A stretch of 64,000 nucleotides of DNA. It comes from Pseudomonadales bacterium. Its GTDB lineage: Bacteria > Patescibacteriota > Microgenomatia > UBA1400 > PJMF01. The stretch spans positions 94,139 to 158,138 of the forward strand of contig JACKFY010000003.1 of assembly GCA_020632235.1 (NCBI GenBank), written 5' to 3'. The first letter of the stretch is position 1, and every line of letters begins with the position of its first letter. Both the position numbers and the translations under genes were made by a program. Positions 1,378 to 50,975 of the stretch are shown piece after piece. Under the pieces are notes generated by a model. That model was not told where the DNA came from, did no database searches, and saw nothing but the letters and a program-made list of their open reading frames with translations.

Positions 1378-2450
1378 AGTGTGTTGTAGGTATCTGTGTG
1401 GATAACGCCAGCCAACTCGTCTGTAGTAAATCCCTTAAAAAATATTTCTGGTTGTAATTGTACACCACTTTGTTCCCGTGCGACGGCTTGCAAGTGCTTG
1501 ATCACAGCCAAGTACTCATCTGCTGTTGCGTTGGCGGTATTTTCGATAAATGCTGCGTGCTTTTCAGACACCCTTGCCCCACCGATGGTAAAGCCTTTTA
1601 AGTCAAGTACTTGGTCAATCACGTATGAAACAGAGGGGGTGGGTAGAGCCAGTCGAGCTTGGTCCTGAGCCGAGAGGTTTTGAAAGATGCAGCCGAGTGA
1701 GTTTTGGGGGTGGTGTTTTTTTGCCTTTGCCCAGTCGATTGATTGTTTGAGCGCTTTTGTTCCATTTCCTTTGTATAGTAGTAAAATAGCAGAGAGAATA
1801 ACCTCATTTGTGTGATGAAAACGTGAATAATCGTACGCAAATGCAAGTTTGTTTGCAGGTAGAGTGTGGATTCTTCCGTCCTCTCCCACAACTTCCACAG
1901 AGTGGATGTAGTCAGAAATGAAGGTGTGGGCGCCATGAATGTTGTTGTAGATGGCTCCACCCAGTGTTGCGGGAATGCGGGCAAACCACTCGAGCCCAAC
2001 TATATTTTGCTGCAGCAGTGTGTTGATCAAGTAGGAAAGGGGTGTCCCTGCATCAACACGAACGGCAACATGTTCGCCATGTGTTACGTGCTTTTGTGGC
2101 AGGTGTTGTTGACGGGCTGTGTCGTCCCAGCGGGGAACAACTCGGCTAGAAAGCGCTCCTTCTGGAACACTTGGTAAAACTGCAACAGCGTTTGCAGTAT
2201 TTTTGACAACCAAGCCTCTGATACCGCGATCGGCAATCAGCGTGTTGGCTCCCCAGCCCAGTATAGTTATGTCCAGTGCGTGTTGCTTGGCATAGATAGT
2301 TAGATCTGCCAAATCTTTGGTGGTGTCTACCTGGCAAAATACCTCGGCTGGCCCGCCGATTTTGACGGTGGTGTACGGCGCGAGTGGCTCGTCCTGCTTG
2401 AACACCAGTTTGGGAAAGGCTGAAGTGAGCTGTTTGTAGAGTGCTGTCAT
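1374..2450 (-). CDS. murB: UDP-N-acetylenolpyruvoylglucosamine reductase
   Basis: 358 aa. 'LAPYTTVKIGGPAEVF...ILGWGANTLIADRGIRGLVV' matches the MurB FAD-binding N-terminal domain. 4-nt overlap with murA. Confidence 0.85.
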   Translation of the reverse strand: MTALYKQLTSAFPKLVFKQDEPLAPYTTVKIGGPAEVFCQVDTTKDLADLTIYAKQHALDITILGWGANTLIADRGIRGLVVKNTANAVAVLPSVPEGALSSRVVPRWDDTARQQHLPQKHVTHGEHVAVRVDAGTPLSYLINTLLQQNIVGLEWFARIPATLGGAIYNNIHGAHTFISDYIHSVEVVGEDGRIHTLPANKLAFAYDYSRFHHTNEVILSAILLLYKGNGTKALKQSIDWAKAKKHHPQNSLGCIFQNLSAQDQARLALPTPSVSYVIDQVLDLKGFTIGGARVSEKHAAFIENTANATADEYLAVIKHLQAVAREQSGVQLQPEIFFKGFTTDELAGVIHTDTYNTL

Positions 2451-4006
2451 GGATGCGTGGAGTAGTACTCCTTTGCTGCTGTTATAAGTGCTGTTTTCTC
2501 ATTTTCTAACTCGCCATCAGTCACGCTTTCAAGTAGGTGTGAGAGTATCTCCCCCAGTTCTCTCCCAGGCTTTAGCCCCAGCTCCTCCATCAAGTCAGTG
2601 CCGTTTACTTTCAAATCGGTTACCGCAAATGGTTGGTTTAACTGTTCGAGCATGCGTTCTTTCATCTCTTCCAGGCGCCAACTAGTTTTTCTAGCGCCAG
2701 AGCCAAGTCTGTCACCTTCACGCAGCGCCAAGATGTCGTTGATGTTGGCAAGTCCCACTGTACGCATAAACCGCCTGATAGAGGCATCGGTATTTTCTGT
2801 CTGATAGTAAAACATGTGATGACGTACTAATACATACACTCGTTCTGCATCACGTTTGGATAAAGCAAGTCTGCGCGCAATAGTTTTTGCCATCCGTGCC
2901 CCCACTATCTCATGATTATAAAACGTAATAGTGTTGCCTACCTGGCGACGTGTCTGGGGTTTACCGATATCATGCAAAAGTGTGGCCAGTCGTACAATGG
3001 GGTCGGGTGATGGGCACTCAGCCAGCGCGTCAAGACTGTGTGTCCAGACATCGGTGGTGTGGTGACCACCTTGGCTGCAACCCTTGCCTGCCAGTAGTTC
3101 TGGCATAATGTATTGTAGTAGCCCTGTCTCATCAAGCAGCTCAATAGCTTCTTTGGGAAATGGTGACGAGAGCATCTTGAGAAACTCGTCGCGAATGCGC
3201 TCCCAGCTCATCTTCGCAGTGAGTTGATGGTTGGCGGCGATAGCGTCATAGGTGGCACGTTCTATCTGCATATTCAGCTGGACGCTAAAGCGAATGGCGC
3301 GCAGCATGCGCAAAGCATCCTCGCCAAACCGCAGGTTTGGCTCTCCCACACAGCGAATAGTGTGGGTTGCAAGATCATCAAGCCCGTCAAACGGGTCATA
3401 CAGCACCACCGCGTCTTTCTCCAAGGTGATTAGAGTTAGCAACTCTGCTGTTTGTTTCAGCCACTGCTTGGCCTGCGGCACCGCAAGCGCCATCGCGTTG
3501 ATGGTAAAGTCTCGCCGTTCAAGATCTTCCCCGAGTGTATGACCCCAGACAACAGAGTCCGGCCGTCGGCCGTCACTGTACGCACCATCACTGCGAAAGG
3601 TAGTGATCTCAATAGGTTTGAGCAGAGGCTCTTTAGAAATAATCTGTGCAGGCTCACCTGCCTGTTTGAGAGAAACATGCACCTTTCCTATTTGTGAACG
3701 AGTTAAAAATACATCTTCGTGTTGTTCTTGCTTACTCATTTCTGGCACGGGCACCCCCAGTTGTTCTGCCAGATGCTCAAGTGTCACGCTCACCGTTCCA
3801 AAGGTATTTTCATAAAACGATTCGGGGAATACTGCCTGTATTTCCTCTGGAGTTGCATCGGTAGTGATATCAAAATCTTTGACCACTCCTTGTGCCTCAG
3901 AGAGCACTACATCTCGCACCGCCCCCCCCACCACGTACGCCTCAAACCCCGCCTCTTGCAGCAGAGAAATGACCTGTAGTACAGCAGTAGGAAACACTAT
4001 CTTCAT
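2447..4006 (-). CDS. cca: CCA tRNA nucleotidyltransferase / poly(A) polymerase family with HD domain
   Basis: Pol-beta head 'YVVGGAVRDVVL'. HD motif 'LLHDIGKP'. The ORF track extends it to 4192, but the conserved N-terminus begins at M63 'MKIVFPTAV...' (ATG 4006-4004). The longer extension would overlap recJ. Confidence 0.8.
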   Translation of the reverse strand: MKIVFPTAVLQVISLLQEAGFEAYVVGGAVRDVVLSEAQGVVKDFDITTDATPEEIQAVFPESFYENTFGTVSVTLEHLAEQLGVPVPEMSKQEQHEDVFLTRSQIGKVHVSLKQAGEPAQIISKEPLLKPIEITTFRSDGAYSDGRRPDSVVWGHTLGEDLERRDFTINAMALAVPQAKQWLKQTAELLTLITLEKDAVVLYDPFDGLDDLATHTIRCVGEPNLRFGEDALRMLRAIRFSVQLNMQIERATYDAIAANHQLTAKMSWERIRDEFLKMLSSPFPKEAIELLDETGLLQYIMPELLAGKGCSQGGHHTTDVWTHSLDALAECPSPDPIVRLATLLHDIGKPQTRRQVGNTITFYNHEIVGARMAKTIARRLALSKRDAERVYVLVRHHMFYYQTENTDASIRRFMRTVGLANINDILALREGDRLGSGARKTSWRLEEMKERMLEQLNQPFAVTDLKVNGTDLMEELGLKPGRELGEILSHLLESVTDGELENEKTALITAAKEYYSTHP

Positions 4007-4070
4007 AGACACACAGGCAGTATACCCCAGATTTCTCTCTCTTGTGAGAGATGCAGTACAATGGAAAGTA
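4007..4070. promoter_or_regulatory. Divergent intergenic region between cca (-) and recJ (+); presumed to carry both promoters
   Basis: A 64-nt gap remains after start refinement of both genes. No explicit -35/-10 assignment was made. Confidence 0.3.
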
Positions 4071-5717
4071 ATGAAGCTTACTCTACGCTCAGACATAACC
4101 CCCACAACACTCGAAGAACTGGGAGACATCCTTCTTGCCAATAGAGGCGTTAGTGATCCAGAATCATTTTTCTCCCCCCCACATCCCAGCACGTTTCAAC
4201 CCAGCGGCCTTGGACTTGATGACGCACGCCTTGCAACTGCAGCCAATCGGCTCAAACAAGCTATAAAGGAAAACGAACGCGTCCTGATTTACGGCGACTA
4301 TGACGCTGATGGTATTACGGCGACCGCCATCCTTTGGAAGACACTCAATCACTTGGGGTTACAAGCTATTCCATTTATTCCTTCAAGGCAAAAACATGGC
4401 TACGGCATTTCACAGCGCAGCCTAGAAGATATCTTAGAGCACCAGCCAGATTTGATAGTAACGGTGGATAACGGCATCGTAGCCCACGATATCTTTATCC
4501 AGCTGAAAAAGTTGGGCATCCAGACCATTCTTACCGATCACCACCAACCAGAATCAAAAAACGGTCAAGCGCTCTATCCACCAGCAGATGTTATCGTTCA
4601 CTCAACAAAGCTGTGTGGGGCAACGGTAGCCTGGATGCTCGCACGCTCGCTCGATGCTGGGTACGCTGAGACACTTCTTGGACTCTGCGCGCTGGCTACT
4701 ATTGCCGACCAAATGCCGCTCAAAGAGCACCACCGCGCGTTTGTCTATCATGGTCTCGCGCAGCTGAGAGTAAGCAAAGACCCCTGGATTACAGAGCTGT
4801 GCCGTGTGGCAGAGACCAAGCAGGACGCGCTGACCAGCGGCAGTATCGGGTACCAGATCGCCCCGCGCATCAACGCTATGGGCAGGATTGCCCACGGTAT
4901 GGACGCCCTGCGTCTTTTGTGTACACATCAAGGCACAACTGCTCAAAAGTATGCCGCTATCTTACAAGAAACTAATCTTGAACGCCAAGAACTGACGACC
5001 GAGATGCTTGAAATAGGTAAAGCCCAGGCAGAACAGCAAGCCGGTGAGCATCTGCTGGTGGTTTCATCACAACACTTTCATGAAGGTGTCATAGGCCTGG
5101 TAGCAGGTAAATTGACCGAGCTGTATCACACACCCACACTAGCCATCGCAGTTGGCACAGACACGGCAAAAGGCTCCGCCCGATCAATACAAGGCATAGA
5201 TATTACACAGATTCTCAGAGCGCATCGAGAGCACCTGCTGGAAGTGGGTGGTCACCCTATGGCAGGTGGATTTTTACTCGAGACTACCCAGCTAGAACCA
5301 TTCATCACCGCTGTTCAAAAAGATGCAAAAGAAAGTATCAGTGCAGAGCTGCTGGAGCCAAGTATGCGGGTTGACTGCAGCCTACCAACTGCATTAGTCC
5401 AAATCGAGACAGCCCAGATGTTGGCAGACTTCGAGCCGTTTGGCACCGCCAACCCTCGCCCTACGTTTGTGCTTGAAAACATGCAGGTAGAACAAGTGCA
5501 GCGGATAGGAAGCGAACAGCAACACTACAAGCTAACCTTACAACAAAAAGATAATGTCTCAGGTGAGCCTGTCACTGCTCTCTGGTGGAACGGTGTCGCA
5601 GAGCAGGAAATCCATACTGGGGGGATGCTCAACATTGTGGGAAAACTTGAGATCAGTGAATTTCGAGGGGTTAAAAGGGTGCAGGTGGTGGTGAAAGACT
5701 GCGTAAAGACTATCTAA
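4071..5717 (+). CDS. recJ: Single-stranded-DNA-specific exonuclease RecJ
   Basis: DHH family motifs 'IYGDYDADGITATAIL' and 'TDHHQPE', followed by a DHHA1-like C-terminus. Start refined to ATG 4071 ('MKLTLRSDITPTTLEEL'). The ORF-track start at 3864 lies antisense inside cca. Confidence 0.85.
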   Translation: MKLTLRSDITPTTLEELGDILLANRGVSDPESFFSPPHPSTFQPSGLGLDDARLATAANRLKQAIKENERVLIYGDYDADGITATAILWKTLNHLGLQAIPFIPSRQKHGYGISQRSLEDILEHQPDLIVTVDNGIVAHDIFIQLKKLGIQTILTDHHQPESKNGQALYPPADVIVHSTKLCGATVAWMLARSLDAGYAETLLGLCALATIADQMPLKEHHRAFVYHGLAQLRVSKDPWITELCRVAETKQDALTSGSIGYQIAPRINAMGRIAHGMDALRLLCTHQGTTAQKYAAILQETNLERQELTTEMLEIGKAQAEQQAGEHLLVVSSQHFHEGVIGLVAGKLTELYHTPTLAIAVGTDTAKGSARSIQGIDITQILRAHREHLLEVGGHPMAGGFLLETTQLEPFITAVQKDAKESISAELLEPSMRVDCSLPTALVQIETAQMLADFEPFGTANPRPTFVLENMQVEQVQRIGSEQQHYKLTLQQKDNVSGEPVTALWWNGVAEQEIHTGGMLNIVGKLEISEFRGVKRVQVVVKDCVKTI

Positions 5718-5827
5718 AGTATTATCATATGCTGATCCTCGCTTATCTCAGTAGGTATTATTTCTTTTGTAATTGAGTAGATTTTTGATATAGTAACATC
5801 CAGTTTTTATGTATTATATATGCTATC

Positions 5828-6655
5828 GTGAAAGAAAAAATGTTAGTCAAAGAAATAGAAGCAATAGTAAGGGTAGAATCTGAAAACACACAGTGGAGTC
5901 GGTTATTCAATCCATTAGTTATGAAAGTCTTATTAGACTATAATAATAACGATAATAGAGGTTATCTTTTTGCAATGACAGGAGACTTGGATAATTTGGG
6001 AGTATATGTTGGCAGAAACGGTAGGGCTGCTGCTGAAAATTTAGTTGATTTGTATAACCAAATAATTCATAATTGTTTGCAAAAATGGCGTGCTACTCGA
6101 AAGGACATACTATCTTTATCACTAGTTCCTAGCGGAGAAGAAGCTTTAGTTTTAGGAGTGTCTGATGGACAAGATGCGCCAGAAAATCTATTTAATACTC
6201 TTCGGAACGAAGTTATGTTGTCAATAAAAGGCCAGCCATATATTGAGATAGGTGACACTGCAGCAAGTTTTGGCGGTGTGGTTTTTGGCAGTGAATTTGA
6301 TGCACAAATACAAAATTTGGTAAATGCTGTACAACAAAAAAACAACTCCGATGATGAAATTTATCCCCTCTACCTTGAAATACTATCCGCAATAAGGAAC
6401 AAAACAGCAGTTGCGCTAGACAGGCATAAATTTGCAGATGTCTTAGAAGGAGAATATCCTGCACATGTCAGGAATCTCGTTCTCACCCAAATGCTTCGAT
6501 ACAAAGAAGCAACTCGCGTAATTATAACTGCCCTCAATAGTTTGTCAGAAGAAAATCTTGTAGAATTGCTAGTTTTACTAGGCAATGAGTATGGAGTAAA
6601 ACCACAAAAAGAGAGCGCTGTGAATGCCTTCATAAGGGAAAAAATAAACAAATGA
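5828..6655 (+). CDS. Palm-domain nucleotide-cyclase-like protein (GGDEF / class III cyclase / mCpol superfamily) with degenerate S-G-E-E signature
   Basis: 275 aa. The ordered motifs read 'FAMTGDLDNLG' (DxD metal site in beta1), 'GRAAAENLV' (GHxxGDxxL-like), 'LVPSGEEALVLGV' (the RxGG[DE]EF position reads SGEE) and 'IEIGDTAASFGGVV'. ATGA overlap with the next gene. The start codon is ambiguous (GTG 5828 or ATG 5840). Confidence 0.45.
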   Translation: MKEKMLVKEIEAIVRVESENTQWSRLFNPLVMKVLLDYNNNDNRGYLFAMTGDLDNLGVYVGRNGRAAAENLVDLYNQIIHNCLQKWRATRKDILSLSLVPSGEEALVLGVSDGQDAPENLFNTLRNEVMLSIKGQPYIEIGDTAASFGGVVFGSEFDAQIQNLVNAVQQKNNSDDEIYPLYLEILSAIRNKTAVALDRHKFADVLEGEYPAHVRNLVLTQMLRYKEATRVIITALNSLSEENLVELLVLLGNEYGVKPQKESAVNAFIREKINK

Positions 6656-7344
6656 AATACGATGGTAGATTAACCAATAACCTGATTTTAATTGGCGGCG
6701 GAATAATGCTAAGGGGAGAAACGGAGAGAATTGATCGCTGGATGCTGAGAAGAGTTCAAAATAATAATAAAAAAAGCAAACCTAAAGTACTTTTTATACC
6801 CTCAGCAAGTGGCGATTTAGATGAATATATCAAAAATTTTACCAATAGGTATCAAGAATATGGAGCAATAGTGAGCAGCCTTTCTTTAACAAGTAAGGCT
6901 CCCTCAAAAACGAAGATAAAAGAACAGTTTTTCGATGCTGAATTGATATACTTTGGTGGAGGAAGTGCTGGGTTACTTCTTGAGGCATTCAAAAAATTTG
7001 AGCTAGAAAGGCTGTGTTTTGAGGCTAATAAGCTTGGAATTTTAATAACAGGACTTAGTGCAGGAGCAATTATTTGGGGAGAAAAGTTTCTAACCTTTGA
7101 TCGAAAAGGAGATGATTTTATTAATTTTCGTATTAAGCGTGGACTTGGATGGACTAACAGTTTAATTATTCCACACTTTGACCCTTCAATGTTAAAAAAT
7201 AAAAATGTGCTTAAACTACTGAAACAAAATTTAAATTTAAAATCTCTAGCTATTGGCAACGGGACTGCTGTGTATTGGGAAGGTAGTTCTATTCCTCTTT
7301 TAAGAAACAAGAAGAATCATGCAAGGGATTGTTTTTATCTATAA
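6652..7344 (+). CDS. Peptidase family S51 (dipeptidase E / cyanophycinase-like) serine peptidase
   Basis: 'KVLFIPSASGD', 'IYFGGGSAGLLL', nucleophile motif 'TGLSAGAIIWG' and 'IPHFDP' (His). All are consistent with the S51 fold and Ser-His-Glu triad. Confidence 0.7.
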   Translation: MKYDGRLTNNLILIGGGIMLRGETERIDRWMLRRVQNNNKKSKPKVLFIPSASGDLDEYIKNFTNRYQEYGAIVSSLSLTSKAPSKTKIKEQFFDAELIYFGGGSAGLLLEAFKKFELERLCFEANKLGILITGLSAGAIIWGEKFLTFDRKGDDFINFRIKRGLGWTNSLIIPHFDPSMLKNKNVLKLLKQNLNLKSLAIGNGTAVYWEGSSIPLLRNKKNHARDCFYL

Positions 7345-7362
7345 AAGATTTAATTCAAGCTT

Positions 7363-8490
7363 ATGCGTGAAAATACTTCTCTTTACAAACCACACGCCCT
7401 TCAAAAGGGAGATGAGATTGGGCTAGTAAGTCCTGTAGGTGAAATGAACAAACAATACGAACGCAGTGCTTTGACTAAGACACTATTGTATCTTAAAAGT
7501 AGGGGATATCGTATTGGTGATGCTGAAATAAATAAAACAACCCTGATAGAAGGTGTTCAAGACCCACAGATTCTTCTTGACTACTATGACCCATATGTAT
7601 TTGATGGGAGAGAAGTATGCTTGAATCCTTTTCGAATGATGCGAAGAAGTTTTCTAGGAAAAAATAACTCTTCATCTGAAGAGAGAGTAGACCTTTTTAA
7701 TCAAGCTGTTGCTCAGTGTCGAGCAGTACTACCTCTTGTCGGCAACAGGTTTGGATTGGATATTGTTGATCAAGTCGATTATGTTGCTTTCCAAAGAAAC
7801 AAACCGATCTTTGTCACGTTCAGTGCTGCTTCAGCTTTTCTTCTACACCTGCACCTCAACACCAATGTAGAGGTTTTTTATGGCCCTCATGTTCATTTTC
7901 TTGCAGGAAGATATGAGAATAACTATACTGAGTCCTCTTTCTGGGAGATGTTAACGAAAAAAAAAACACCTTTTCTTTTAGAAAACATTTACTCTTCAGA
8001 AAATAATATAATAGGGAAAGAAATTCCTTTTATAGGCCATCACAACCAATCTTCATCTAGTGTTACGGGGACACTACTCCCCATTTTTCTCTTTAGTCTA
8101 GAGAAAGTTATAAAACAAGAAAGTATTGATTTTGACCCTAGGGGAAAGATTTTAATCTTAGAAGCAGACGAAAGAAGTTATGAAGAATGCTTAGAGGCTC
8201 TACAATTAATTCATGAGCGTGTGAATCTTTCTAATTTATCTGCCTTAGTTCTCGCTTCATTTATTGCTTTTAAACAAGAAAGCATAGAATTGAGAAACAG
8301 CTTGCTTGACCGCAACAAGATTGCCGAGTTTGTTTCTAATGTGAGAGCACTTCTCGATGACAATATACCTGTGATTTACGGATTTCCTATGGGACATTCG
8401 AAACATAAACTAACAATCCCAATGGGAATTAAAGCTGAGTTAGATATCGAAACAGGAGATATAACTATAATCGAAAGCCTTTTTTCTTAA
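7363..8490 (+). CDS. Peptidase family S66 (LD-carboxypeptidase LdcA / microcin-C immunity MccF-like) serine peptidase
   Basis: N-terminal 'LQKGDEIGLVSPVG'. Nucleophile region 'FVTFSAASAFLLHLHL'. Acidic 'ILILEADERSYEE'. C-terminal 'YGFPMGHSKHKLTIPMG'. Contains an A10 homopolymer (7967-7976). Confidence 0.7.
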   Translation: MRENTSLYKPHALQKGDEIGLVSPVGEMNKQYERSALTKTLLYLKSRGYRIGDAEINKTTLIEGVQDPQILLDYYDPYVFDGREVCLNPFRMMRRSFLGKNNSSSEERVDLFNQAVAQCRAVLPLVGNRFGLDIVDQVDYVAFQRNKPIFVTFSAASAFLLHLHLNTNVEVFYGPHVHFLAGRYENNYTESSFWEMLTKKKTPFLLENIYSSENNIIGKEIPFIGHHNQSSSSVTGTLLPIFLFSLEKVIKQESIDFDPRGKILILEADERSYEECLEALQLIHERVNLSNLSALVLASFIAFKQESIELRNSLLDRNKIAEFVSNVRALLDDNIPVIYGFPMGHSKHKLTIPMGIKAELDIETGDITIIESLFS

Positions 8491-8492
8491 AG

Positions 8493-9263
8493 ATGAACGG
8501 GACTAATAACATGTCGACTAAAGAATGGTATAAACCAACAAGTGAAAACATTAGTCCTTTTGACCGTATATACCTCGAGGAATGCAGGCTCCCCAAAGAA
8601 AGGACATCGCAAGAAGCAAGCTCTTTAGGAGCCATTATTTCTGCTATGCAAATAAAACCTCGTGTTTTAGATATAGCTGGTGGATTCGGACGGATTGGTT
8701 CGGAGTTAATTAGTCAAAATCTAGCATACTCCTTAGTTAATCTAGATCTAAATAGAGAATTTCTTGATTTAGCAAGAAAGAATGGAGTGTCAGAGGTTGT
8801 GCAAGCAGATATGCGAGATTTAGCTTTTAAAAAAGGAAGTTTTGATTTGGCACTCATAATGTTTACAGCCTTTGGCTATTTTAATGATGAAGATAACTTC
8901 AGAGTTTTGCAAGAAGTATATAGAGTACTAGATGATGACGGAGTTTTAGTATTAGACTTGCCAAACTACAATAGAATTTGTAATAATTTTTCTACCCATC
9001 GAGAAATGTTATTAGGAAATGGAGATATCATAAGATACGAAAAAAAAATTGAAGGAAACTATTTAATTGAGCAAAGATTTAGAGTAGTACAAAATCAAAG
9101 TCAAAAAAAACTGTTACCTATAAAACTAAGAATATATTCTGTTTCAGAAATAGTACTATTGTGTCAGGCAGCTGGTTTTAATGAGTTACTGGTAGTTGAC
9201 CAAGAACTAAGGGGTTTTTCTTTAACTACATCAAAGCGTCTTTGGATTATTGGTACTAAATAA
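8493..9263 (+). CDS. Class I SAM-dependent methyltransferase
   Basis: Motif I 'VLDIAGGFGRIG', acidic motif II 'LVNLDLN' and post-I/II layout typical of the Methyltransf_11/12 families. Confidence 0.75.
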   Translation: MNGTNNMSTKEWYKPTSENISPFDRIYLEECRLPKERTSQEASSLGAIISAMQIKPRVLDIAGGFGRIGSELISQNLAYSLVNLDLNREFLDLARKNGVSEVVQADMRDLAFKKGSFDLALIMFTAFGYFNDEDNFRVLQEVYRVLDDDGVLVLDLPNYNRICNNFSTHREMLLGNGDIIRYEKKIEGNYLIEQRFRVVQNQSQKKLLPIKLRIYSVSEIVLLCQAAGFNELLVVDQELRGFSLTTSKRLWIIGTK

Positions 9264-9320
9264 ATGCAAGGAAGTAGTAATTATAGCAAATCCTCCTTTT
9301 TTCTACTATAATAAGAACCT

Positions 9321-10730
9321 ATGCAACGCACCCTCACCCTCCAAACCACCCAACATATCGGTGAAGTAGTCAAGCTGCAAGGCTGGGTCGACACCAAGCG
9401 CGACCACGGCAAGCTAACGTTTATTGATTTGCGTGACCGCACGGGCACTGTTCAGTGTGTGGGCTACCAAAAAATGGGTGAGCTAACTCCCGAGTCTGTG
9501 ATTGAGGTTGTCGGCCAGGTCAAAGAGCGCCCAGAAAACATGATCAATGCAGAAAGTGCCACTGGTGCGGTTGAAATTGACGTACGCGAGTACACAGTGC
9601 TGGGCAAAGCTGGCAGCCTGCCTATTCCTATCGATACGGATGGCAGTGAGATTGCCGAAGAGATGCGCCTTAAGTACCGCTATCTTGACCTGAGGCGCGA
9701 GAGGATGCAAAAAAATGTGCGAGTACGATCAGAGTTGACTCGCGCTCTGTCTGAAGCACTCTACGAGCGTGAGTTTGTCAACATCGAAACCCCCATGCTT
9801 ACCAAGTCAACCAAAGAGGGTGCGCGTGACTTTGTGGTTCCTGCCCGCCTGCAGCCAGGTTTGTTTTACGCCCTGCCCCAGAGTCCCCAGCAGTACAAGC
9901 AGCTCCTCATGACCGCAGGGTTTGAGCGCTACTTTCAGGTAGCACGCTGCATCCGTGATGAAGACCTGCGAAGTGACAGAGGTTTTGAGTTTACCCAGCT
10001 AGACCTTGAGATGAGCTTTCCCGAGTCGCGAGAGAGCGTGATGGAGTTGGTCGAGACTGTAGTCAAACAAGCGGTCACAAGTGTGGGTGGTAAGATGCAA
10101 CAAGACCCCTTTCCTGTTGTTTCGTACCCAGAGGCACTAGAAAAGTACGGCGCTGATAAGTTTGATCTTCGTACAGAGCAGGAAAAAAAGAATGGAGTAC
10201 TTGCCTTTGCCTGGGTGGTTGATTTCCCTTTTTTCAAGAAGGTTGATGCCAAAGATGTTGCCGAGGTACGTGATGGCAAGAGCGGCTGGACGTTCACCCA
10301 CAACCCCTTTAGCTCGCCTATACCAGAGCACATAGAGTGGCTCAAAAACAAAGAGCACATTGGCGAGATTATCACCGCCCAGTATGACCTAGTCTGCAAC
10401 GGCTACGAGGTGGGTGGCGGCAGCATTCGCGCCCACTCACCAGAGCTTTTGACCGCGGTGTTCGAGATCATGGGTTACTCAAGTGAAGAGATTACCGAAG
10501 GTGTAGGGCACATGCTCGAAGCCTTTGGTGTAGGCACACCACCTCACGGCGGTATTGCTTTGGGTCTTGATAGACTAGCGATGCTTCTGACCGGCGAGAC
10601 ATCACTCAAAGAATCTATTGCCTTTCCTATGACGGGGAGTGGCAAAACAGCAGTCATGCAGGCGCCAGCGCCTATTAGCGATGAGCAGTTGCGCGAGCTA
10701 CATCTAGCTACTCAGCTGCCAAAGAAGTGA
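9321..10730 (+). CDS. aspS: Aspartate--tRNA ligase (short form lacking GAD insertion)
   Basis: Class II aaRS with an OB-fold N-terminus. 'QSPQQYKQLLMTAGFERYFQVARCIRDEDLRSDRGFEFTQLDLEMSF' closely parallels AspRS motif 2 region. 'GLDRLAMLLTG' is motif 3. Confidence 0.85.
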   Translation: MQRTLTLQTTQHIGEVVKLQGWVDTKRDHGKLTFIDLRDRTGTVQCVGYQKMGELTPESVIEVVGQVKERPENMINAESATGAVEIDVREYTVLGKAGSLPIPIDTDGSEIAEEMRLKYRYLDLRRERMQKNVRVRSELTRALSEALYEREFVNIETPMLTKSTKEGARDFVVPARLQPGLFYALPQSPQQYKQLLMTAGFERYFQVARCIRDEDLRSDRGFEFTQLDLEMSFPESRESVMELVETVVKQAVTSVGGKMQQDPFPVVSYPEALEKYGADKFDLRTEQEKKNGVLAFAWVVDFPFFKKVDAKDVAEVRDGKSGWTFTHNPFSSPIPEHIEWLKNKEHIGEIITAQYDLVCNGYEVGGGSIRAHSPELLTAVFEIMGYSSEEITEGVGHMLEAFGVGTPPHGGIALGLDRLAMLLTGETSLKESIAFPMTGSGKTAVMQAPAPISDEQLRELHLATQLPKK

Positions 10731-10818
10731 GTCAGTCTCTTCTAGTTTCTTTGTAAAAGTGGGAGTAGGCATGGTAGGAATTGGTTTCGTACGCAGTATT
10801 TGTTATACTGACAGCACC

Positions 10819-11136
10819 ATGAGCAACACTACGCATAGCAATGGGTTATTACAGGCAAAAGAGGCAGTGCTCCCTGTTTTACTTAACTACTTTAACCCCC
10901 ACACAACAACGATCTTTGTCTTTGGTTCTCAAGCGTTGGGAGTACAACACGACCGATCAGACATCGATGTAGGCTACACAACTTCTACCCCCCCCAGTGC
11001 TCTTCAAACAACAGAGATGAGAGAAAAACTTGATACGCTACCCTTTCTTATCGATCTTGTTGACTTTTCGACTGTTTCGGATGACTTTAAAAAAGTAGCT
11101 AAGGAAAGTCGCATTGTATGGCACCAAGCAAAATAA
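10819..11136 (+). CDS. Minimal nucleotidyltransferase (MNT, Pol-beta superfamily) antitoxin-type protein
   Basis: 'VFGSQALGVQHDRSDIDVGY' is the GSx9-13 SDxD signature. The ORF track starts at 10759, but M21 (10819) is the likely start. 19-nt overlap with the downstream HEPN gene. Confidence 0.7.
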   Translation: MSNTTHSNGLLQAKEAVLPVLLNYFNPHTTTIFVFGSQALGVQHDRSDIDVGYTTSTPPSALQTTEMREKLDTLPFLIDLVDFSTVSDDFKKVAKESRIVWHQAK

Positions 11137-11501
11137 CTATTTTGAGAGAAAGTTTGACCTGTGCAGTAGCGCAACTTGACGAACTTGCCACAGTAGCTAA
11201 TCCGAGTGATGTTGAGCGAGACGCCCTTATCCAGCGGTTTGAGTATACGTTTGAACTTGGTTGGAAGTACTTAAAAGCACTCCTTGCAGATCAGGGTGTG
11301 CTTGAACACTCTCCCGCAAAAGTAATAAAAGAATCATATAGGGTAGAACTTATTGATGATCTCGAGCTATGGCTCACCCTGCTTGAAAAGCGAAACTTGA
11401 CTGTTCATATGTATAGTCAAGAGATTGCAGAGTCAGTACTGCCGTTTTCTCCACCGCTTGTAACAGCAACTAGACAGCTATTACGATCAACTAATGAGTG
11501 A
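11118..11501 (+). CDS. HEPN-domain protein (nucleotidyltransferase substrate-binding, HI0074-like) toxin-type
   Basis: 127 aa, helical, with the Rx4H motif 'RNLTVH' near the C-terminus. Paired with the MNT gene. Confidence 0.7.
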   Translation: MAPSKITILRESLTCAVAQLDELATVANPSDVERDALIQRFEYTFELGWKYLKALLADQGVLEHSPAKVIKESYRVELIDDLELWLTLLEKRNLTVHMYSQEIAESVLPFSPPLVTATRQLLRSTNE

Positions 11502-11597
11502 TGTTTTGTGAAACGGGTGGTGCAGGAGATGTTTTCAACAGGTTTTGGATGGATAAAAAATAGAGAATAGGGAAAACCATCTTAAGAAAACATTGTA

Positions 11598-12017
11598 TTA
11601 GTAGGCATTTTTACCTAAGAAGCTGAGATCAGCGCCCTGTTGCTTCAGAAAATCTCTTAACAAAATGTACTGATTTCTTTGCGCATCTGTAGGATCGTAG
11701 CTTCTAATGATATCTACAGTCCATGTTGGGTTGTTGCGTAATGAGGAGCTCTTGGGCTGAAAAGATGTATCTATGTAAACCAACATTTCCAGAATGTCTA
11801 GCAACTTACTTTTTGGGTTTTCACTAGAAGCGACTTTGAGCAACCAAATGAGTGATGTTTGGTCAAATTTTATAAAAAAGGGGCCAGAGTTATGATCAAC
11901 CCTTGCCCACATTTGCCCACTGTTCTTTATAAGAAAGTCATACTCCGTGGGAGTAGCAACTAACCCACGATTGCGTGCCTGTTTGAATCCTGCGTAATGC
12001 TTATTATATCTTTGCAC
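11598..12017 (-). CDS. Hypothetical protein
   Basis: 139-aa ORF with no recognisable motifs. Sits between the TA pair and murC. Confidence 0.35.
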   Translation of the reverse strand: MQRYNKHYAGFKQARNRGLVATPTEYDFLIKNSGQMWARVDHNSGPFFIKFDQTSLIWLLKVASSENPKSKLLDILEMLVYIDTSFQPKSSSLRNNPTWTVDIIRSYDPTDAQRNQYILLRDFLKQQGADLSFLGKNAY

Positions 12018-12111
12018 TATTGGATCAATATAATCACTGTTCTCATGAATTTTTTGGGCAACATTCTTACCCCCCCCCAGAACGAAACCGATTGAAAAAT
12101 TCTCTCATGTC

Positions 12112-13542
12112 TTATAGTATATCATACACCTTATACACATCGCCCGCTCCCATAGTCAAACAAGCATCACCAGGTCGTAGGGTAGAGTTGAGTGTCTTTG
12201 CCAGCTCGTCAAGTGTTGTGACAACAGCAATATCTGCAGCTGGATTTTTTTGCTTGACAGCCTCTGCAAGTAGTTGACTAGATACAGAGTCATCACGTTC
12301 TTCTCTAGCAGAGGCAAAAACTTCCAGTAAGATGAGGCGCTCGATTTTTGCCAGAGCATCGACGAAGTCGTCAAACAGCTCTTTGGTGCGTGAGTAGGTA
12401 TGAGGCTGAAAGACAACTATTTTTTTTTGGTCTGGATACCACTGGCCTAAAGCGGTGAGTGTGGCGGTGATTTCGTCTGGATGGTGAGCATAGTCATCAT
12501 AGTAGGTGACACCATCTCTTTCTCTAATGTATTCAAAGCGACGCTTGGTAGAGCGAAACGCGGTGAGTGCCTGCATGGCCTCTGGCAGAGCAATGCCGAG
12601 GTGTGTGGTTGCAGCCAGCGCGCTGGCTGCATTGGCCACATTGTGAAGACCTGGTAGAGCAAGGGTGCTGGTGTGGGTTGCTCCTTGGTGCGTGATGGCG
12701 TAGGCGGTTGTACCAGCGCGCGTGCTATCGGGATCAAGCGCATAGATAACATCTGCCCCACTCTTTTTTGTGCCGAATGAAATGCCCTTGGCGGGAAGTG
12801 TCTCTGGAAGATGGGGGCGATCATCTGCGTTATACACCAATATGCCGCCCGGCTTGATGTGCGAGAAAAACTGAGCGAACACCTCTTTGGTGTGATTAAA
12901 GTCTTGGTAGACATCAGGATGGTCAAACGCGAGGTTGGTGCAGACAGTCAGGTATGGCTTGAGGTAGGAAAATCTTGGGGTGACCTGCTCTCCCTTCGTG
13001 ACTGCGGCTGGGTCGGTTACGTACTCGTCTGCCTCTGCCACAAAGTACTCTGATGCTTGATTCCAAGCTCCTGTTCTTGATAAGCCTGGAATGCTCCCCA
13101 CACCTACGGCGTAGGACGGGTGGCGAGCAGTATGTTCCAAAATCCAGGCGATCATAGCGCTGACGGTGGACTTCCCCCCTACGCCGCACACCGCAATGCC
13201 TTTTTTTTGGTTAAACAGCAGCCCGAGCGCTTCTGCATGAGAGAGGGTGGGAGTATTTTTTGCTTGGGCTTCGCGTACTAACGGATTATCAGGGCCGTTG
13301 TGGGCGGCCGTGTAGATAACGCACTGGGTGTTTTCTGGTAGTGGTGTGTTTAGAGAAGTAGCGGTAATACCAAGTTCTTCCAGCTGGTCTTTGGTGATAA
13401 AGTCTTCTGCTGTGTCACCTCCCCGCACTGTTTTCCCCATGTCAATCAGGCAGGCAGCCAGCGCAGTCATGGCAACACCTTTCACCCCAACCAAAAAAAA
13501 TCTATCCCACTCTAAAACATTTTGGATGGACACTGTGTTCAT
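12112..13542 (-). CDS. murC: Mur ligase, UDP-N-acetylmuramate--L-alanine ligase-like
   Basis: N-terminal Rossmann 'FFLVGVKGVAMTALAACLIDMGKTVRGGD' (MurC-like 'GIGGiGMS...GSD'). P-loop 'AVCGVGGKSTVSAMIA'. 476 aa. MurC versus MurD/Mpl cannot be fully resolved by eye. Confidence 0.6.
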   Translation of the reverse strand: MNTVSIQNVLEWDRFFLVGVKGVAMTALAACLIDMGKTVRGGDTAEDFITKDQLEELGITATSLNTPLPENTQCVIYTAAHNGPDNPLVREAQAKNTPTLSHAEALGLLFNQKKGIAVCGVGGKSTVSAMIAWILEHTARHPSYAVGVGSIPGLSRTGAWNQASEYFVAEADEYVTDPAAVTKGEQVTPRFSYLKPYLTVCTNLAFDHPDVYQDFNHTKEVFAQFFSHIKPGGILVYNADDRPHLPETLPAKGISFGTKKSGADVIYALDPDSTRAGTTAYAITHQGATHTSTLALPGLHNVANAASALAATTHLGIALPEAMQALTAFRSTKRRFEYIRERDGVTYYDDYAHHPDEITATLTALGQWYPDQKKIVVFQPHTYSRTKELFDDFVDALAKIERLILLEVFASAREERDDSVSSQLLAEAVKQKNPAADIAVVTTLDELAKTLNSTLRPGDACLTMGAGDVYKVYDIL

Positions 13543-13551
13543 GCTATTCTT

Positions 13552-14550
13552 TCAAAGTTTTTCTAAAATATTTTCCAAGACGTGTTGTAGTTTCGCACTG
13601 TCATGACGAATCAGCGAGCGATGAGCGGTGTCATGTTCTGATTTTTCAACTACAGTAGTGCTAGCCAGAGGTTTTTTGAGCATGTGTGTATTATGTACGT
13701 CTGTATCGTCAAGCACGGGGTATTCTTTTTCTGCTGCGTAGCGCGCTAGAATTTCTGAAGAAAAGACATCGGTATTGACCAGCATCCAGTCTACTGGCTG
13801 GCCAATAGCTGCTTCTATCCCTTTTTGGTGGACAGTGGCAGACATGCCGTGCGTTTGGGTTTTGCGGGTCATCAGGTTGAGCACGTACAGCACCTTGGCT
13901 GATGAGGTCTTGAATGCTGTTTGCACACCATCTACCATTAGTGTAGCCATGATACTGGCGTAGTAGTCACCCGGGCCAATGATGATGAGATCGGCTGACT
14001 CAATGGCTTGTTGTGCTTGAGAACTCAAAGAGCAGTTTGGCACGAGCGTTACTTTTTTTATTGTTTTAGGATGCTTTGGGTTTTCGTCCAAGATGTGCTC
14101 ACCCACCTCACTGGTGCCATCGGTGTAGTGAATCTTGAGGTTCACATTTTCGTCGGTGACGGGCAGCACGGTTCCACTCAGGCGAAAGATGCGACTGGCT
14201 ATGCCGAGTGACTCGGTTGTTGAGCTAGTCATGTCTTGGAGCGCTGTCAAGATGAGATTGCCCAGATTGTGACCCTTGAGCCCGCTTCCTTTATTAAATC
14301 GGTAGAGCAGAATGTTTTGAATCCAGTTTTCGTGTTCAGACTCGGCAAGCGCTGCAAGTGATTGTCTTAAATCACCTACAGGCTGAAAGCCAAACTCATC
14401 ACGTATGCGCCCTGTAGAGCCACCCGAGTCGGAAACAGCAATAAGGGTGGTGATGGTGACGGGCAGCTCTTTGAGTGCCGTGATCACCCCAAACGTGCCC
14501 GTGCCCCCGCCCATCACTACAACGTTATAAGGCTTCTTTTTTTTACTCAT
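13552..14550 (-). CDS. yvcK: YvcK/CofD-like (UPF0052, gluconeogenesis factor) family protein
   Basis: 'YNVVVMGGGTGTFGVITALKELPVTITTLIAVSDSGGSTGRIRDEFGFQPVGDLRQSLAALA' is the family signature. Start refined to M47 'MSKKKKPYNVVV' (ATG 14550). 8-nt overlap with the murE stop. Confidence 0.75.
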   Translation of the reverse strand: MSKKKKPYNVVVMGGGTGTFGVITALKELPVTITTLIAVSDSGGSTGRIRDEFGFQPVGDLRQSLAALAESEHENWIQNILLYRFNKGSGLKGHNLGNLILTALQDMTSSTTESLGIASRIFRLSGTVLPVTDENVNLKIHYTDGTSEVGEHILDENPKHPKTIKKVTLVPNCSLSSQAQQAIESADLIIIGPGDYYASIMATLMVDGVQTAFKTSSAKVLYVLNLMTRKTQTHGMSATVHQKGIEAAIGQPVDWMLVNTDVFSSEILARYAAEKEYPVLDDTDVHNTHMLKKPLASTTVVEKSEHDTAHRSLIRHDSAKLQHVLENILEKL

Positions 14551-19427: not shown

Positions 19428-19949
19428 ATGCTTTTTATGATATACTTTACACATGTTTATAGTATACATAGCATAACAACCATCATGTTCAATCTTGAAA
19501 ATTCCCCTCGTAATAAAATGCAATTAATTTTGTTTTTAGGCATAATTTCAAAAATAGTCCCTACTACTACAAGGAAAGATATACATAAATTTGTGAAGAA
19601 CTTAGTTATGGATCAACTAGAAGTTAGTGGTGAACGGGCGCATCGGATTATAGACGACCTTGAAGAAGAAACAGACACTGCTTTAAAAGAAAAAGTGAAA
19701 AAAATCATTTCTATATGGCGGCAAGTAGTAAACCAAGTGAATGAAGCAATAGAACTTAATCTGAATGAAAGTTATAAATACCTTTATAGATTGGCAGTTG
19801 TGTTTGAGAGTATTGTTGAGCAGAATAAAGATCAGCAATTTTTGTTGTTAGAAAAACTTTTTGCGCTCGAAAGCATTCTGAGTAGTGAAGAAAAAAGACT
19901 GTGTGCGCTGCTGGATGCAAACACGCCTGAGTACAATGGGATACTTTAA
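19428..19949 (+). CDS. Hypothetical protein (AT-rich islet)
   Basis: 173-aa ORF, helical and acidic, with no known motifs. Real start may be an internal Met. Confidence 0.35.
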   Translation: MLFMIYFTHVYSIHSITTIMFNLENSPRNKMQLILFLGIISKIVPTTTRKDIHKFVKNLVMDQLEVSGERAHRIIDDLEEETDTALKEKVKKIISIWRQVVNQVNEAIELNLNESYKYLYRLAVVFESIVEQNKDQQFLLLEKLFALESILSSEEKRLCALLDANTPEYNGIL

Positions 19950-19960
19950 GGTATTTTTGC

Positions 19961-20476
19961 ATGCCACCAGAAACACAAATTTTTGCGTTTCACGACACAT
20001 TCACTGTTGAGACGCCCCCCCCATCACTGAAGCAAATAGAGCCAACAGGGCTGTCAATAACAGAGCTGTTAAATCTTGCACGGACTGAAAACCCACACAT
20101 TGCTTTGGCGTATGGTCACTTATATCTAGATCATTGGAACCTGAGTTGTGTAGAGTTCGTGTTTTATATTCTTGAATGCTGCACGTTTGATTTTGTTGGA
20201 TCTCTCTATGATGATACATCTCCCAGCTTACCCCAGACGCTAGTGTCTTTAGGCAGGAAAAACGATGCGCCTGGAGGGCCAATAGTTGTTGCCTACTTTA
20301 GCGATGTTGGAGAAATGACTCATATGGGCATACTTATTGAGGAAGACAGAGTGCTGTCAAAATTTGGTCAGGGACGCCCTTACTACCATCAGATTGAGTA
20401 TATCCCTGAAGAATACGGCACGCAGTATGCACTTTTTTCGTATAGAGGGAGCGAGTCTGAGTGGCAAGCTTCGTAG
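19961..20476 (+). CDS. Hypothetical protein; possible papain-like (Cys...His) fold
   Basis: 171 aa. Cys pair 'YILECCTFDF' lies about 60 aa before 'GEMTHMGILIEED', spacing reminiscent of NlpC/P60 or CHAP enzymes. No signal peptide was noted. Confidence 0.3.
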   Translation: MPPETQIFAFHDTFTVETPPPSLKQIEPTGLSITELLNLARTENPHIALAYGHLYLDHWNLSCVEFVFYILECCTFDFVGSLYDDTSPSLPQTLVSLGRKNDAPGGPIVVAYFSDVGEMTHMGILIEEDRVLSKFGQGRPYYHQIEYIPEEYGTQYALFSYRGSESEWQAS

Positions 20477-21285: not shown

Positions 21286-22239
21286 TTGTTACTTCGTGAA
21301 TACTGTAGCATGAAGTTTTCTTTGAGTCTATTTGTAGACTTTTATCCTATAATAGTGTATAATAATATTATGAGGCCAGAAAGAAGTGGCGGGATAGTTA
21401 ACCCATATGGCGCTGTAGTTGCAGCATTGACCGCTAACAATTGGAAAGTTGGGTATGTTAATGATCGAGTAACATATGTTCCTCCATTGAAAAATGTTGA
21501 GAAACCAAAAGTACGTGGTATTAAACATAATGTAGTCCTATTCGATCACCTCAAAGGTAGCCCAGATGATATCTTCTCTGCTCTTAAAGCAGTACATCAA
21601 GATCCATTAAGATTCTTAGTTGGAAGTAGAGTTGATCTTTTAGGTGCTACAGATCCTCATTCTATGTATGAAGTAGCGCAACTCTTAGCTCAGGTTTCAT
21701 TTGAGGGTCAGTTAATTGTCACAGAAAGAGAAGATACTCCAGTATTTGTGGCAGAACAGATATTATTTGATAGCTTTTTAGGATTACCTCGAGAACAAAT
21801 AAAACTACATGTTGGAGATGTTTTATCATTAGATAAAGATAGTGCCTCAAGTGCAATGATAGCAGATGTATTAACATATTACTTATCAGATCAACAGTTA
21901 CAAAACATAGCCAACATTGTGTATGGAAGATTAGATAGCGATGGTTATTTTTTTTGCAGAGATTTGGTGGAAGTTAATGGCCCTCCGCCAGTGCGTTCTC
22001 GCACTATAAGTACAGTACCTTCGATTGCTACAGTAGGCTCTCATCTTAGAGTCGATTTTAATCTGGATATTTCTGACAGTGATATAGAAAACATCATACT
22101 TAATAGATGGGGAGCCACTTCTACCTATTGTAGAGCAGATGCAAACCAATTAATAGAACAATTTTCTCAAGCAGGTTTAGAATTTAGTTATTTCTATTCC
22201 TACTTCAACAGTGCAACTATACAACAGTTCTCATCCTAG
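21286..22239 (+). CDS. Hypothetical protein (AT-rich islet)
   Basis: 317-aa ORF with no recognisable motifs. Composition differs from flanking glyQS. Confidence 0.35.
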   Translation: MLLREYCSMKFSLSLFVDFYPIIVYNNIMRPERSGGIVNPYGAVVAALTANNWKVGYVNDRVTYVPPLKNVEKPKVRGIKHNVVLFDHLKGSPDDIFSALKAVHQDPLRFLVGSRVDLLGATDPHSMYEVAQLLAQVSFEGQLIVTEREDTPVFVAEQILFDSFLGLPREQIKLHVGDVLSLDKDSASSAMIADVLTYYLSDQQLQNIANIVYGRLDSDGYFFCRDLVEVNGPPPVRSRTISTVPSIATVGSHLRVDFNLDISDSDIENIILNRWGATSTYCRADANQLIEQFSQAGLEFSYFYSYFNSATIQQFSS

Positions 22240-45988: not shown

Positions 45989-46112
45989 AACCGTACAACA
46001 AAAGCAACTAGAGTTACTATCCTCCATATCTATACCTACGGAAACGTACCTTACCGGAGGTACAGCATTATCATTACAGATTGGCCTCTTATCCTTATTG
46101 AATGACTAATGA
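45969..46112 (+). pseudogene. 47-codon ORF resembling the N-terminus of an AbiEii/DUF1814-type nucleotidyltransferase; likely truncated remnant
   Basis: Manual translation gives 'MSQLFRETVQQKQLELLSSISIPTETYLTGGTALSLQIGLLSLLND*'. The 'LTGGTALSL' block resembles the conserved start of AbiEii-family proteins. It terminates exactly where the AT-rich island begins. Confidence 0.3.
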
Positions 46113-46194
46113 ATATATCAGGCTGAATAAAATTTTTCGCTCTTAGTACACCTATTATTGCTTCCTTTTTTTCAAGCTGTTAGAATGAGACAGA

Positions 46195-48200: not shown

Positions 48201-48232
48201 TATAACCAAATAAAGATTTTCAAAATGTTAAT

Positions 48233-48964: not shown

Positions 48965-49392
48965 CTTCAGTACAAGATGGATAGTAATATGCGAGAAACA
49001 GTAGATCAAGAACTATACTTATTTCTTGGTATAGATCTTGTTAAGCCTTATGATGAAAAAATAGTCAAAATTGTTGAAAAAATAACAAAAGAACTATCAC
49101 TAAAAATAAGGAGTGGCAGATAATTAATCTGCAAAAGAATAAAAAAAAGAATAAACAATGATAAGATAGTAACTATAGATAAAACCGACAATGTTTTTAA
49201 TAAATTTACTTTGCTAATAAAACTTATATATAGTATTGTAAAAATACGCTTCAAAAGCCCTCAAAAAAAAATCAATATTAATATAATTTGGTCGGGATTC
49301 AGAGTTGCAGAGTTGCTAATATGGGTTGTTTGTAAGTTGTTGAGTATTAAGATCACTTATACAGTTGTGACACGAAAACAAACGGGTCATTT

Positions 49393-50942: not shown

Positions 50943-50975
50943 GAAACCTATCAAATTATCTATAGTTAGCACTTA

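Follow-up and report, generated by a model that had tools for sequence, protein, structure and literature searches.

A low-GC cassette of Patescibacteria pairing an orphan palm-domain protein with an S66 serine hydrolase: a candidate nucleotide-based conflict or small-molecule system

Introduction

What is the function of four enzyme genes of low G+C content (GC) that lie between recJ and aspS in a bacterium of the Patescibacteriota, and do the four genes belong together at all? The question is raised by a 64,000-nucleotide stretch of a metagenome-assembled genome (MAG; GenBank assembly GCA_020632235.1, contig JACKFY010000003.1, positions 94,139 to 158,138), referred to as the window throughout, and within it by the segment from 5718 to 9320. 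A preliminary description, made from the letters alone, had read the genes as encoding a palm-domain cyclase-like protein (g1), an S51 peptidase (g2), an S66 peptidase (g3) and a methyltransferase dependent on S-adenosylmethionine (SAM; g4), and could match the combination to no described system. The combination is likewise absent from the models of PADLOC and from the papers retrieved in a literature search. The comparative analysis presented here makes the cassette a good candidate for a new nucleotide-based conflict or small-molecule system, although the unit that is conserved is smaller than four genes.

A conserved pair with changing partners

An exhaustive hidden Markov model search of 1.84 billion cluster representatives yielded 91 members of the g1 family, nearly all of them 250-280 amino acids (aa) long. 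The family has a sharp edge, GGDEF proteins being absent from the matches. In one genome each from 185,579 species, 28 g1 loci were found, most of them in the candidate phyla radiation (CPR)/Patescibacteria, namely Microgenomates, Saccharibacteria and Paceibacteria; outside CPR labels there are one Zixibacteria MAG and several low-GC gut MAGs labelled Alphaproteobacteria. The locus set combines genomes of GTDB species with exact-protein look-ups, and open reading frames (ORFs) were called and clustered in all loci. Neighbours were counted over 30 non-redundant g1 loci, a set which grew to about 35 once further look-ups had been added.

An S66 gene lies directly beside g1 in 26 of the 30 loci, either co-directional or convergent. 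S51 genes are present in 16 loci and methyltransferase genes in 7, to which L037 (with the methyltransferase in divergent orientation) and L041 can be added, and in five loci a 206-aa alpha/beta serine hydrolase (PF06821) replaces S51 in its position. The architectures track the g1 tree. The clade of the window has the order G1>S51>S66>MT> (MT, methyltransferase; arrowheads give the direction of transcription), and the others are G1>S51>S66>S66'>DarT-like, G1>S66>MT>, G1>S66>, G1> <S66 <S51 and G1> <S66 <alpha/beta hydrolase, with <MT G1> <S66 <S51 in L037, from the further look-ups. When the search was started from S66 instead, both members of the subfamily that were looked up independently (L040 and L041) had g1 alongside. 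Pairwise distances between g1 proteins and those between the adjacent S66 proteins are correlated with r = 0.95, a value not reached in any of 2000 Mantel permutations. Fusions of g1 to S51 occur in two cluster representatives, P0062 (488 aa) and P0091 (425 aa), which are protein records only and in which a frameshift artefact at the ATGA junction of the two genes is possible. No Pfam family occurs more than twice among 141 neighbouring proteins and the flanking genes differ in every locus. This implies that the module is self-contained.

The conserved core is g1 together with a dedicated S66 enzyme, an obligate and co-evolving partner, and not the four-gene set; lineage-specific additions to it are S51, the alpha/beta hydrolase, the methyltransferase, the DarT-like protein and a further S66. 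The earlier proposal of a functional module is supported, since the gene combination does recur in genomes with different flanking genes, and it is refined in that the unit conserved throughout is g1 with S66. In L004, on a 465-kb scaffold, the cassette is followed (at 11373-13814) by a co-directional gene for a 449-aa protein with a weak phosphoribosyltransferase match and by one for a 362-aa protein with faint TCAD9/RIO kinase-like matches. These two co-directional genes may be extra lineage-specific members.

Two further candidate links were rejected. ThiF, YcaO and M29 aminopeptidase genes that neighbour the module in L001, L004 and L006 are not recurrent among the 141 neighbouring proteins and are not counted as members of the system. 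Microcin C and agrocin target aminoacyl-tRNA synthetases, and such genes are found close to the module in the window (aspS, after the island) and in L001, L007 and L035 (leuS). The tRNA-synt_1 family accounts for only 2 of the 141 neighbours, and by our own estimate (about 20 synthetase genes per 800-1000 genes and six neighbours per locus) chance would produce about five such adjacencies in 35 loci.

The palm-domain protein

The g1 protein is made up of a palm domain (approximately residues 46-152) and a helical domain (approximately residues 158-272). It has no match in Pfam or NCBIfam even at E <= 1, none in PADLOC or PHROGs, and none among the PDB sequences by phmmer or hmmsearch; with a profile built from 42 family members, GGDEF chains of the PDB were not matched even at E <= 10. 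Hence, g1 cannot be matched by Pfam or PDB sequence to the GGDEF diguanylate cyclases (PF00990), but it shares with them the beta-alpha-beta-beta-alpha-beta palm fold, and its catalytic motifs, as aligned by hand, would be laid out in a similar way. Among other palm enzymes, the figures listed for g1 are about 11-9.4 for class III adenylyl/guanylyl cyclases, 10.6 for GTP cyclohydrolase III and about 9 for Cas10.

The most conserved motifs of the family, TGD53LD55NLG...G65R66xxAE70 and PSG103E104E105, are placed where GGDEF domains hold the first-strand Asp and the GG(D/E)EF hairpin, with Ser in place of the first Gly; this placement comes from a manual motif alignment with PleD-type cyclases and not from superposed coordinates. 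The same manual alignment puts V61 of g1 at the position of the Asn that specifies guanine in diguanylate cyclases and E70 at that of the Asp. Across 56 diverse members there is no variation at D53, R66, V73, G103, E104, R190 and K201 and very little at D55, E105, D198, R215 and K226, with D55 and E105 conserved in at least 90%. Fold and motifs (D53/D55, PSGEE) thus support the early view that gene 1 encodes a palm-domain protein resembling cyclases, with the motifs in order. By contrast with GGDEF diguanylate cyclases, g1 has no visible RxxD I-site and no N-terminal sensor domain, and it adds a C-terminal helical domain with invariant Arg and Lys residues. The g1 protein is a putative nucleotide cyclase or nucleotidyltransferase, from a previously unclassified family with the fold of nucleotide-signal synthases.

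The partner enzymes

The family assignments given to the other three genes at the outset are confirmed by Pfam, and g1-g4 all look like cytoplasmic, soluble enzymes with intact active sites. The g2 protein matches Peptidase_S51 (PF03575) with an E-value of 1.4e-29, and the residues S136 (in GxSAG) and H175 are invariant in 16 of 16 module copies of the S51 enzyme; g2 is a true member of the family. Its scores against the equivalog models for cyanophycinase (28.8 bits, cutoff 126.6) and PepE (25.9 bits, cutoff 156) are so far under the cutoffs that g2 is neither of the two.

The g3 protein matches the C-terminal domain of S66 at 4.9e-13 and the N-terminal domain at 9.2e-09. The Ser-His-Glu triad that marks the family is present (S154, E267 and H345, invariant in the module copies). 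The S66 enzymes linked to g1 form a subfamily of their own, in which the nucleophile motif reads FSAAS instead of YSD(I/A)T and GNR(F/Y)G takes the place of GG(Y/F)G, and in which an insert between the domains carries its own conserved motifs, L-x-N-I-Y-S and IPF-x-G; the clade of the window has an additional insert of about 45 residues, which is poorly modelled. The nucleophile and oxyanion motifs, the insert motif and the extra insert thus set g3 apart from both MccF and LdcA. In sequence and in structure, the subfamily is nearest to MccF-type enzymes, one of which has been solved with adenosine monophosphate bound. The profile E-values are 2e-34 for MccF, over the full length, and 3e-33 for LdcA, in two pieces. 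This margin is small and the adenine-stacking loop of MccF cannot be aligned reliably, so that "MccF-like" is used here to denote resemblance and not membership. The g3 protein is a genuine S66 enzyme, and the new subfamily to which it belongs is slightly nearer to the MccF-like group than to LdcA. MccF hydrolyses aminoacyl-nucleotides. The mcc operon in which it is found (MccA, B, C, D and E) does not surround g3.

The g4 protein matches Methyltransf_25 (8e-16) and Methyltransf_11 (6e-14). It contains the motif VLDIAGGFGR, and the residues D60, G66, D85 and D106 of the SAM motifs are invariant in 7 of 7 copies. The nearest NCBIfam models, for UbiE/MenG, daptide and glycine/sarcosine N-methyltransferases, all score far under their cutoffs. 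A PADLOC match to "mad2" covers the generic methyltransferase domain only and was discarded. The gene encodes a generic class I methyltransferase and is a lineage-specific part of the module.

Partners of the CARF-AAA+ and DarT types

In three loci without hydrolases (L014, the P0203 contig and L039), g1 is followed by an RtcR-like sigma54 AAA+ protein, in two of them with a clear CARF domain. L014 and L039 adjoin phage-type primases (phrog_28855 at 7e-79 and phrog_1156) and an XRE-like regulator, which suggests that this variant is borne by phages or their satellites. The g1 proteins linked to AAA+ partners are 35-40% identical to those linked to peptidases and thus no farther from them than the peptidase-linked clades are from one another. 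CARF domains are the receptors of the products of Cas10 and mCpol, and pairing with CARF proteins has been seen for synthases (PMC13577387). A stand-alone palm cyclase with a CARF effector constitutes type II of the Panoptes system (PMC13577387), type I having been described separately (PMC12657230). Given this precedent, no other indirect evidence for a nucleotide ligand made by g1 is as strong as its pairing with CARF.

A family of DarT-like proteins (213-221 aa) closes the operon G1>S51>S66>S66' in two unrelated genomes. The copy in L040 is a weak match to PF14487, and its homologue in L013, 45% identical to it, falls under Pfam significance by itself. A KAP/BrxC-like NTPase gene and a canonical GGDEF gene are found near the module in L040.

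A tentative function and its rivals

The cassette may be a mobile module with g1 as the source of a nucleotide signal and with the hydrolases as the output, a reading which we prefer tentatively and to which we give slightly less than an even chance. Its most likely role would be in inter-genomic conflict, that is, defence against phages or mobile elements. In such a module, g1 would bind a nucleoside triphosphate at a two-metal site of the GGDEF type, formed by D53 and D55 of the first strand and E104 and E105 of the PSGEE hairpin; fold and motifs are seen, and the activity would follow from them. R190, K201, R215 and K226 of the C-terminal helical domain probably hold the triphosphate or the acceptor, and the product could be an oligonucleotide, either cyclic or linear, or else a conjugate of a nucleotide. 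As the gene neighbourhoods suggest, this product would be read by the protein of the neighbouring gene, mostly the MccF-like S66 enzyme and, in three loci, the RtcR-like sigma54 AAA+ protein. S66 and the second hydrolase (S51 or alpha/beta) could then act as the output by cleaving a small metabolite with an amide or ester linkage, and this cleavage would be triggered either by the signal or by its disappearance. The methyltransferase, the second S66 and the DarT-like ADP-ribosyltransferase would be lineage-specific add-ons to this scheme.

What favours a nucleotide-signal conflict model is the combination of a rare, patchy, mobile and self-contained module with one constant synthase-like protein and swappable partners, and the CARF-AAA+ partners and the DarT-like add-on tilt the evidence further toward signalling or conflict. 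A bolder form of the proposal, which we consider unlikely, makes g1 the founder of a new class of stand-alone nucleotide-signal synthases with a module logic that has not been described before. The signal would block the active-site pocket of S66 until a phage sponge or nuclease removes it, in the manner of a Panoptes-like guard with enzymes as effectors, or else it would be an amino acid-nucleotide conjugate that is made or destroyed by S66 and S51. Because an MccF-type adenylate pocket lies in the active site, an inhibitory signal would, speculatively, be a mechanistically natural design.

Several observations weigh against a signalling module. No signal-sensor domain such as CARF or SAVED can be recognised in S66 or S51, and the small substrates taken by their characterised relatives would be unusual targets for an effector that kills. 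The fusions of g1 with S51 and the ATGA coupling of their genes are seen more typically with enzymes that act in succession in metabolism than with a signal generator and an effector, and about half of the loci have g1 and S66 in convergent order, which defence operons do not usually show. There is no enrichment of known defence genes among the 141 neighbouring proteins, PADLOC-DB v2 recognises none of g1, g2 and g3, and IMG/VR holds no relative, as scanned with the family alignment and with two CARF-linked g1 sequences. Moreover, a CARF/AAA+ partner is present in only 3 of about 35 loci, and every functional step of the module is inferred.

The g1-S51 fusions, the absence of sensors from S66 and S51, the ATGA coupling, the convergent order, the small-molecule character of the hydrolases and the methyltransferase, and the lack of enriched defence neighbours would all suit the main rival reading, a small-molecule pathway that acts on an amino acid- or peptide-nucleotide conjugate, whether to synthesise it, to tailor it or to provide self-immunity or detoxification as with microcin C. 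In such a pathway g1 would be responsible for installing or transferring the nucleotidyl part, S51 for trimming or delivering an Asp-type moiety, S66 for cleavage of the aminoacyl-nucleotide bond and the methyltransferase for tailoring of the product. The nearness of the S66 subfamily to MccF-like enzymes is consistent with this, as are the likeness of g4 to small-molecule and peptide N-/O-methyltransferases and the presence of four cytoplasmic-looking enzymes with intact active sites. The S51 relatives PepE and cyanophycinase act on Asp-X or beta-Asp substrates, and the weak NCBIfam matches of g2 lie in their direction. The order of the g1-S51 fusion, with a synthase followed by a domain like those of glutamine amidotransferases (GATases), recalls amidotransferase architectures, and ThiF, YcaO and M29 aminopeptidase genes do occur near the module in L001, L004 and L006. 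However, ThiF is found in only 2-3 of about 35 loci and the flanking families do not recur; a precursor peptide, an exporter and an MccB-type adenylating enzyme are all outside the conserved set, palm-domain enzymes are not known as makers of aminoacyl-nucleotides, and about three quarters of the loci are without the methyltransferase. A pathway of this kind also leaves unexplained why g1 should occur with CARF-AAA+ proteins on phage-like elements and with a DarT-like add-on, and we judge it fairly unlikely.

The other explanations carry less weight. If g1 were a non-catalytic, nucleotide-binding regulatory subunit like the receptor-type GGDEF proteins, controlling or scaffolding the hydrolases, then its extreme divergence from every catalytic family, seen in the lack of Pfam and PDB sequence matches, its fusion to S51 and the Val in place of the guanine-specifying Asn (by manual alignment) would be understandable. 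Yet receptor-type GGDEF domains usually lose their acidic ligands, while among the 56 members D53, G103 and E104 never vary and D55 and E105 hardly do, and CARF pairing is as found in synthases (PMC13577387); the invariant metal ligands in particular disfavour a regulatory g1, which is improbable. A housekeeping role in the recycling of murein stem peptides, with an LdcA-like S66 and a dipeptidase that a local second messenger would control (compare cyclic di-AMP and cell-wall homeostasis), is very improbable: the g1 family is far too rare and patchy, the composition in the window is foreign, the flanking genes are different at every locus, the canonical LdcA motifs are replaced in S66, and such a role does not accommodate partners of the CARF-AAA+ and DarT-like kinds on phage-like elements. 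Mere chance adjacency of four genes without a common function has only the general gene density of small genomes in its favour and is negligible as an explanation. The comparative data, namely the recurrence of the association in about 35 loci with differing flanks, the correlation of r = 0.95, the fusions and the ATGA overlap, rule it out.

Relation to known systems

The preferred reading, a signal-making g1 with hydrolases as output, invites comparison with systems that employ a palm-domain synthase. Panoptes consists of mCpol/OptS with a 2TM-beta protein (type I) or of mCpol with CARF-TM (type II). g1 shares the fold of mCpol but has no match to the mCpol model of Pfam, and while mCpol is a minimal, palm-only protein of about 110-130 aa, g1 is 275 aa long, carries the hairpin PSGEE and possesses a conserved helical domain in addition, which places it outside mCpol. 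Its partners are usually soluble serine hydrolases (S66, S51 or alpha/beta) and not the membrane effectors 2TM-beta or CARF-TM, and even the CARF partners in L014 and the P0203 contig are sigma54-type AAA+ regulators as opposed to the CARF-TM proteins of type II. Signalling by Cas10 in type III CRISPR systems likewise depends on a palm-domain synthase, and a CARF-family or RtcR-like neighbour is found in three g1 loci. By contrast, g1 is a single small protein whose partners are mostly hydrolases without CARF, and there are no cas genes or CRISPR arrays in the island of the window or in the g1 loci that were fetched.

With the toxin-antitoxin system DarTG, the module shares the DarT-like protein of L040 and L013, but the DarG macrodomain partner is not seen there, and the DarT-like gene is absent from the cassette of the window and from most g1 loci. 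The hallmarks of a microcin C cluster, an MccB-type ThiF-like enzyme, an MccA precursor and an exporter, are not found within 5718-9320. From these comparisons we infer a stand-alone palm-cyclase type of signalling module with a new family of synthases and a new class of partner enzymes.

Layout and composition of the island

The cassette takes up 3.4 kb (5828-9263) between recJ, which ends at 5717, and aspS, which starts at 9321. The four ORFs are co-directional and tightly packed as first reported (Table 1), with an ATGA overlap of g1 and g2 at 6652-6655 and 18 nucleotides between g2 and g3. At the third junction the preliminary description had claimed an overlap of 2 nucleotides, which is in fact a 2-nucleotide spacer (TAA-ag-ATG).

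Table 1. Coordinates of the island in the window and of g1 partner genes in other loci
Feature	Position	Strand	Description
Leader, left edge of low-GC island	5718-5827	+	AT-rich intergenic; read from the sequence
g1	5828-6655	+	275 aa; start GTG, alternative ATG at 5840; orphan GGDEF/mCpol-like palm-domain protein (putative)
g2	6652-7344	+	230 aa; S51 serine hydrolase (PepE/cyanophycinase-type, class I GATase-like fold)
g3	7363-8490	+	375 aa; S66 serine hydrolase, dedicated MccF-like subfamily
g4	8493-9263	+	256 aa; class I SAM-dependent methyltransferase, small-molecule type
Right edge of island	9264-9320	+	57-nucleotide spacer ahead of aspS; GC climbs to about 0.5 from here
g1 and CARF-sigma54 AAA+ (L014)	5319-8058		Cas_NE0113 5.9e-22; PADLOC RtcR_PspF2 CARF_AAA_HTH 1.8e-64; CARF5 6e-47; Csx1 5e-33
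g1 and CARF-sigma54 AAA+ (P0203 contig)			Cas_NE0113 plus Sigma54_activat
g1 and sigma54 AAA+ (L039)	6001-8841		N-terminal domain not recognisably CARF
DarT-like protein (L040)	7128-7769		213 aa, final operon gene; PF14487 28.7 bits (cutoff 22.5), E 1.3e-6, weak match
DarT-like homologue (L013)	13474-14139		Same position as in L040

The low GC noted between recJ and aspS is borne out by composition, in which the island deviates strongly from its neighbours. The GC of 5718-9263 is 35.2%, compared with a median of 45.3% for segments of equal length across the window, and the genes g1-g4 have a GC of 0.34-0.37 and a GC at third codon positions of 0.23-0.29, as against 0.51 and 0.50 in recJ and 0.53 and 0.57 in aspS. 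No more than 6.8% of equal-length sliding windows are as poor in GC, and no more than 5.8% deviate as much from the tetranucleotide background of the window; those that match the deviation of the island all come from one other island at about 46-51 kb. In many loci the GC of the module is shifted from that of the host, in both directions, with a difference of 15 points in the window. The 35% GC of the module in the window resembles that of its closest relatives, which sit in genomes of 33-43% GC. This points to horizontal and recent acquisition from a donor of that type. The three findings that the preliminary description had named as fatal to its proposal (a gene 1 that is no palm-domain cyclase, four genes that are nowhere else conserved together, and a composition like the background) were each looked for, and none was made.

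The leader contains a promoter-like sequence, TTGTAA-16-TATAGT, at 5767-5794, which is a match to the consensus only, in a region with 9 such sites where 11.6 are expected from shuffles. A scan of 5500-9500 with Rfam matched no riboswitch or leader family, and a 24-codon ORF at 5809 that overlaps the start of g1 was rejected for want of support.

Other features of the window and source labels

Directly after aspS, at 10759-11501 on the + strand and at about 41% GC, the gene for a minimal nucleotidyltransferase (Polbeta/NTP_transf_2, 125 aa) overlaps one for a HEPN-like NTase_sub_bind protein (127 aa). The two form a toxin-antitoxin pair of the MNT/HEPN type which is, next to the island, a second small insert of foreign appearance. 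At about 46000-60000 lies a long low-GC tract (0.28-0.41), and its stretch at 47-51 kb deviates more than any other part of the window. The tract, with genes for an LPG_synthase_TM protein, a class I methyltransferase and glycosyltransferases of families 1 and 2, is probably a variable surface-glycan island. Two low-GC patches (0.33-0.38) on the + strand at 19428-20476 and 21286-22239 contain ORFs of 173, 171 and 317 aa without a Pfam match. The longest-ORF calls for a CCA-adding/poly(A) polymerase-like gene (2447-4192, - strand) and for recJ (3864-5717, + strand) overlap by about 330 nucleotides; the true starts of both genes are probably internal.

The MAG is labelled "Pseudomonadales bacterium" at NCBI, while an identical aspartyl-tRNA synthetase and a near-identical MurC have also been deposited as Candidatus Woesebacteria. 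Several related MAGs with the label "uncultured Gammaproteobacteria" likewise have CPR-type contexts. The NCBI taxonomic labels of the source and of these related MAGs look wrong.

Conclusions

If g1 is an active synthase, it would represent a structurally distinct branch of palm-domain enzymes, palm plus helical domain, beside GGDEF, Cas10 and mCpol, one that is invisible to the sequence profiles that were tried. A signalling function would also add a new type of output, serine hydrolases for small substrates that are related to the immunity enzyme of microcin C, and would thereby widen the repertoire of nucleotide-based conflict. Most MccF-like S66 enzymes are without a known natural substrate, and they would gain a candidate ligand that is genetically linked to them. 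Few signalling immune systems are known to have been characterised in CPR bacteria, and the module would be one native to them. Since the cassette is only 3.4 kb long and encodes four soluble enzymes, heterologous expression and the analysis of products in vitro are feasible, which would open an experimental route into the defence or the chemistry of these hard-to-culture bacteria.

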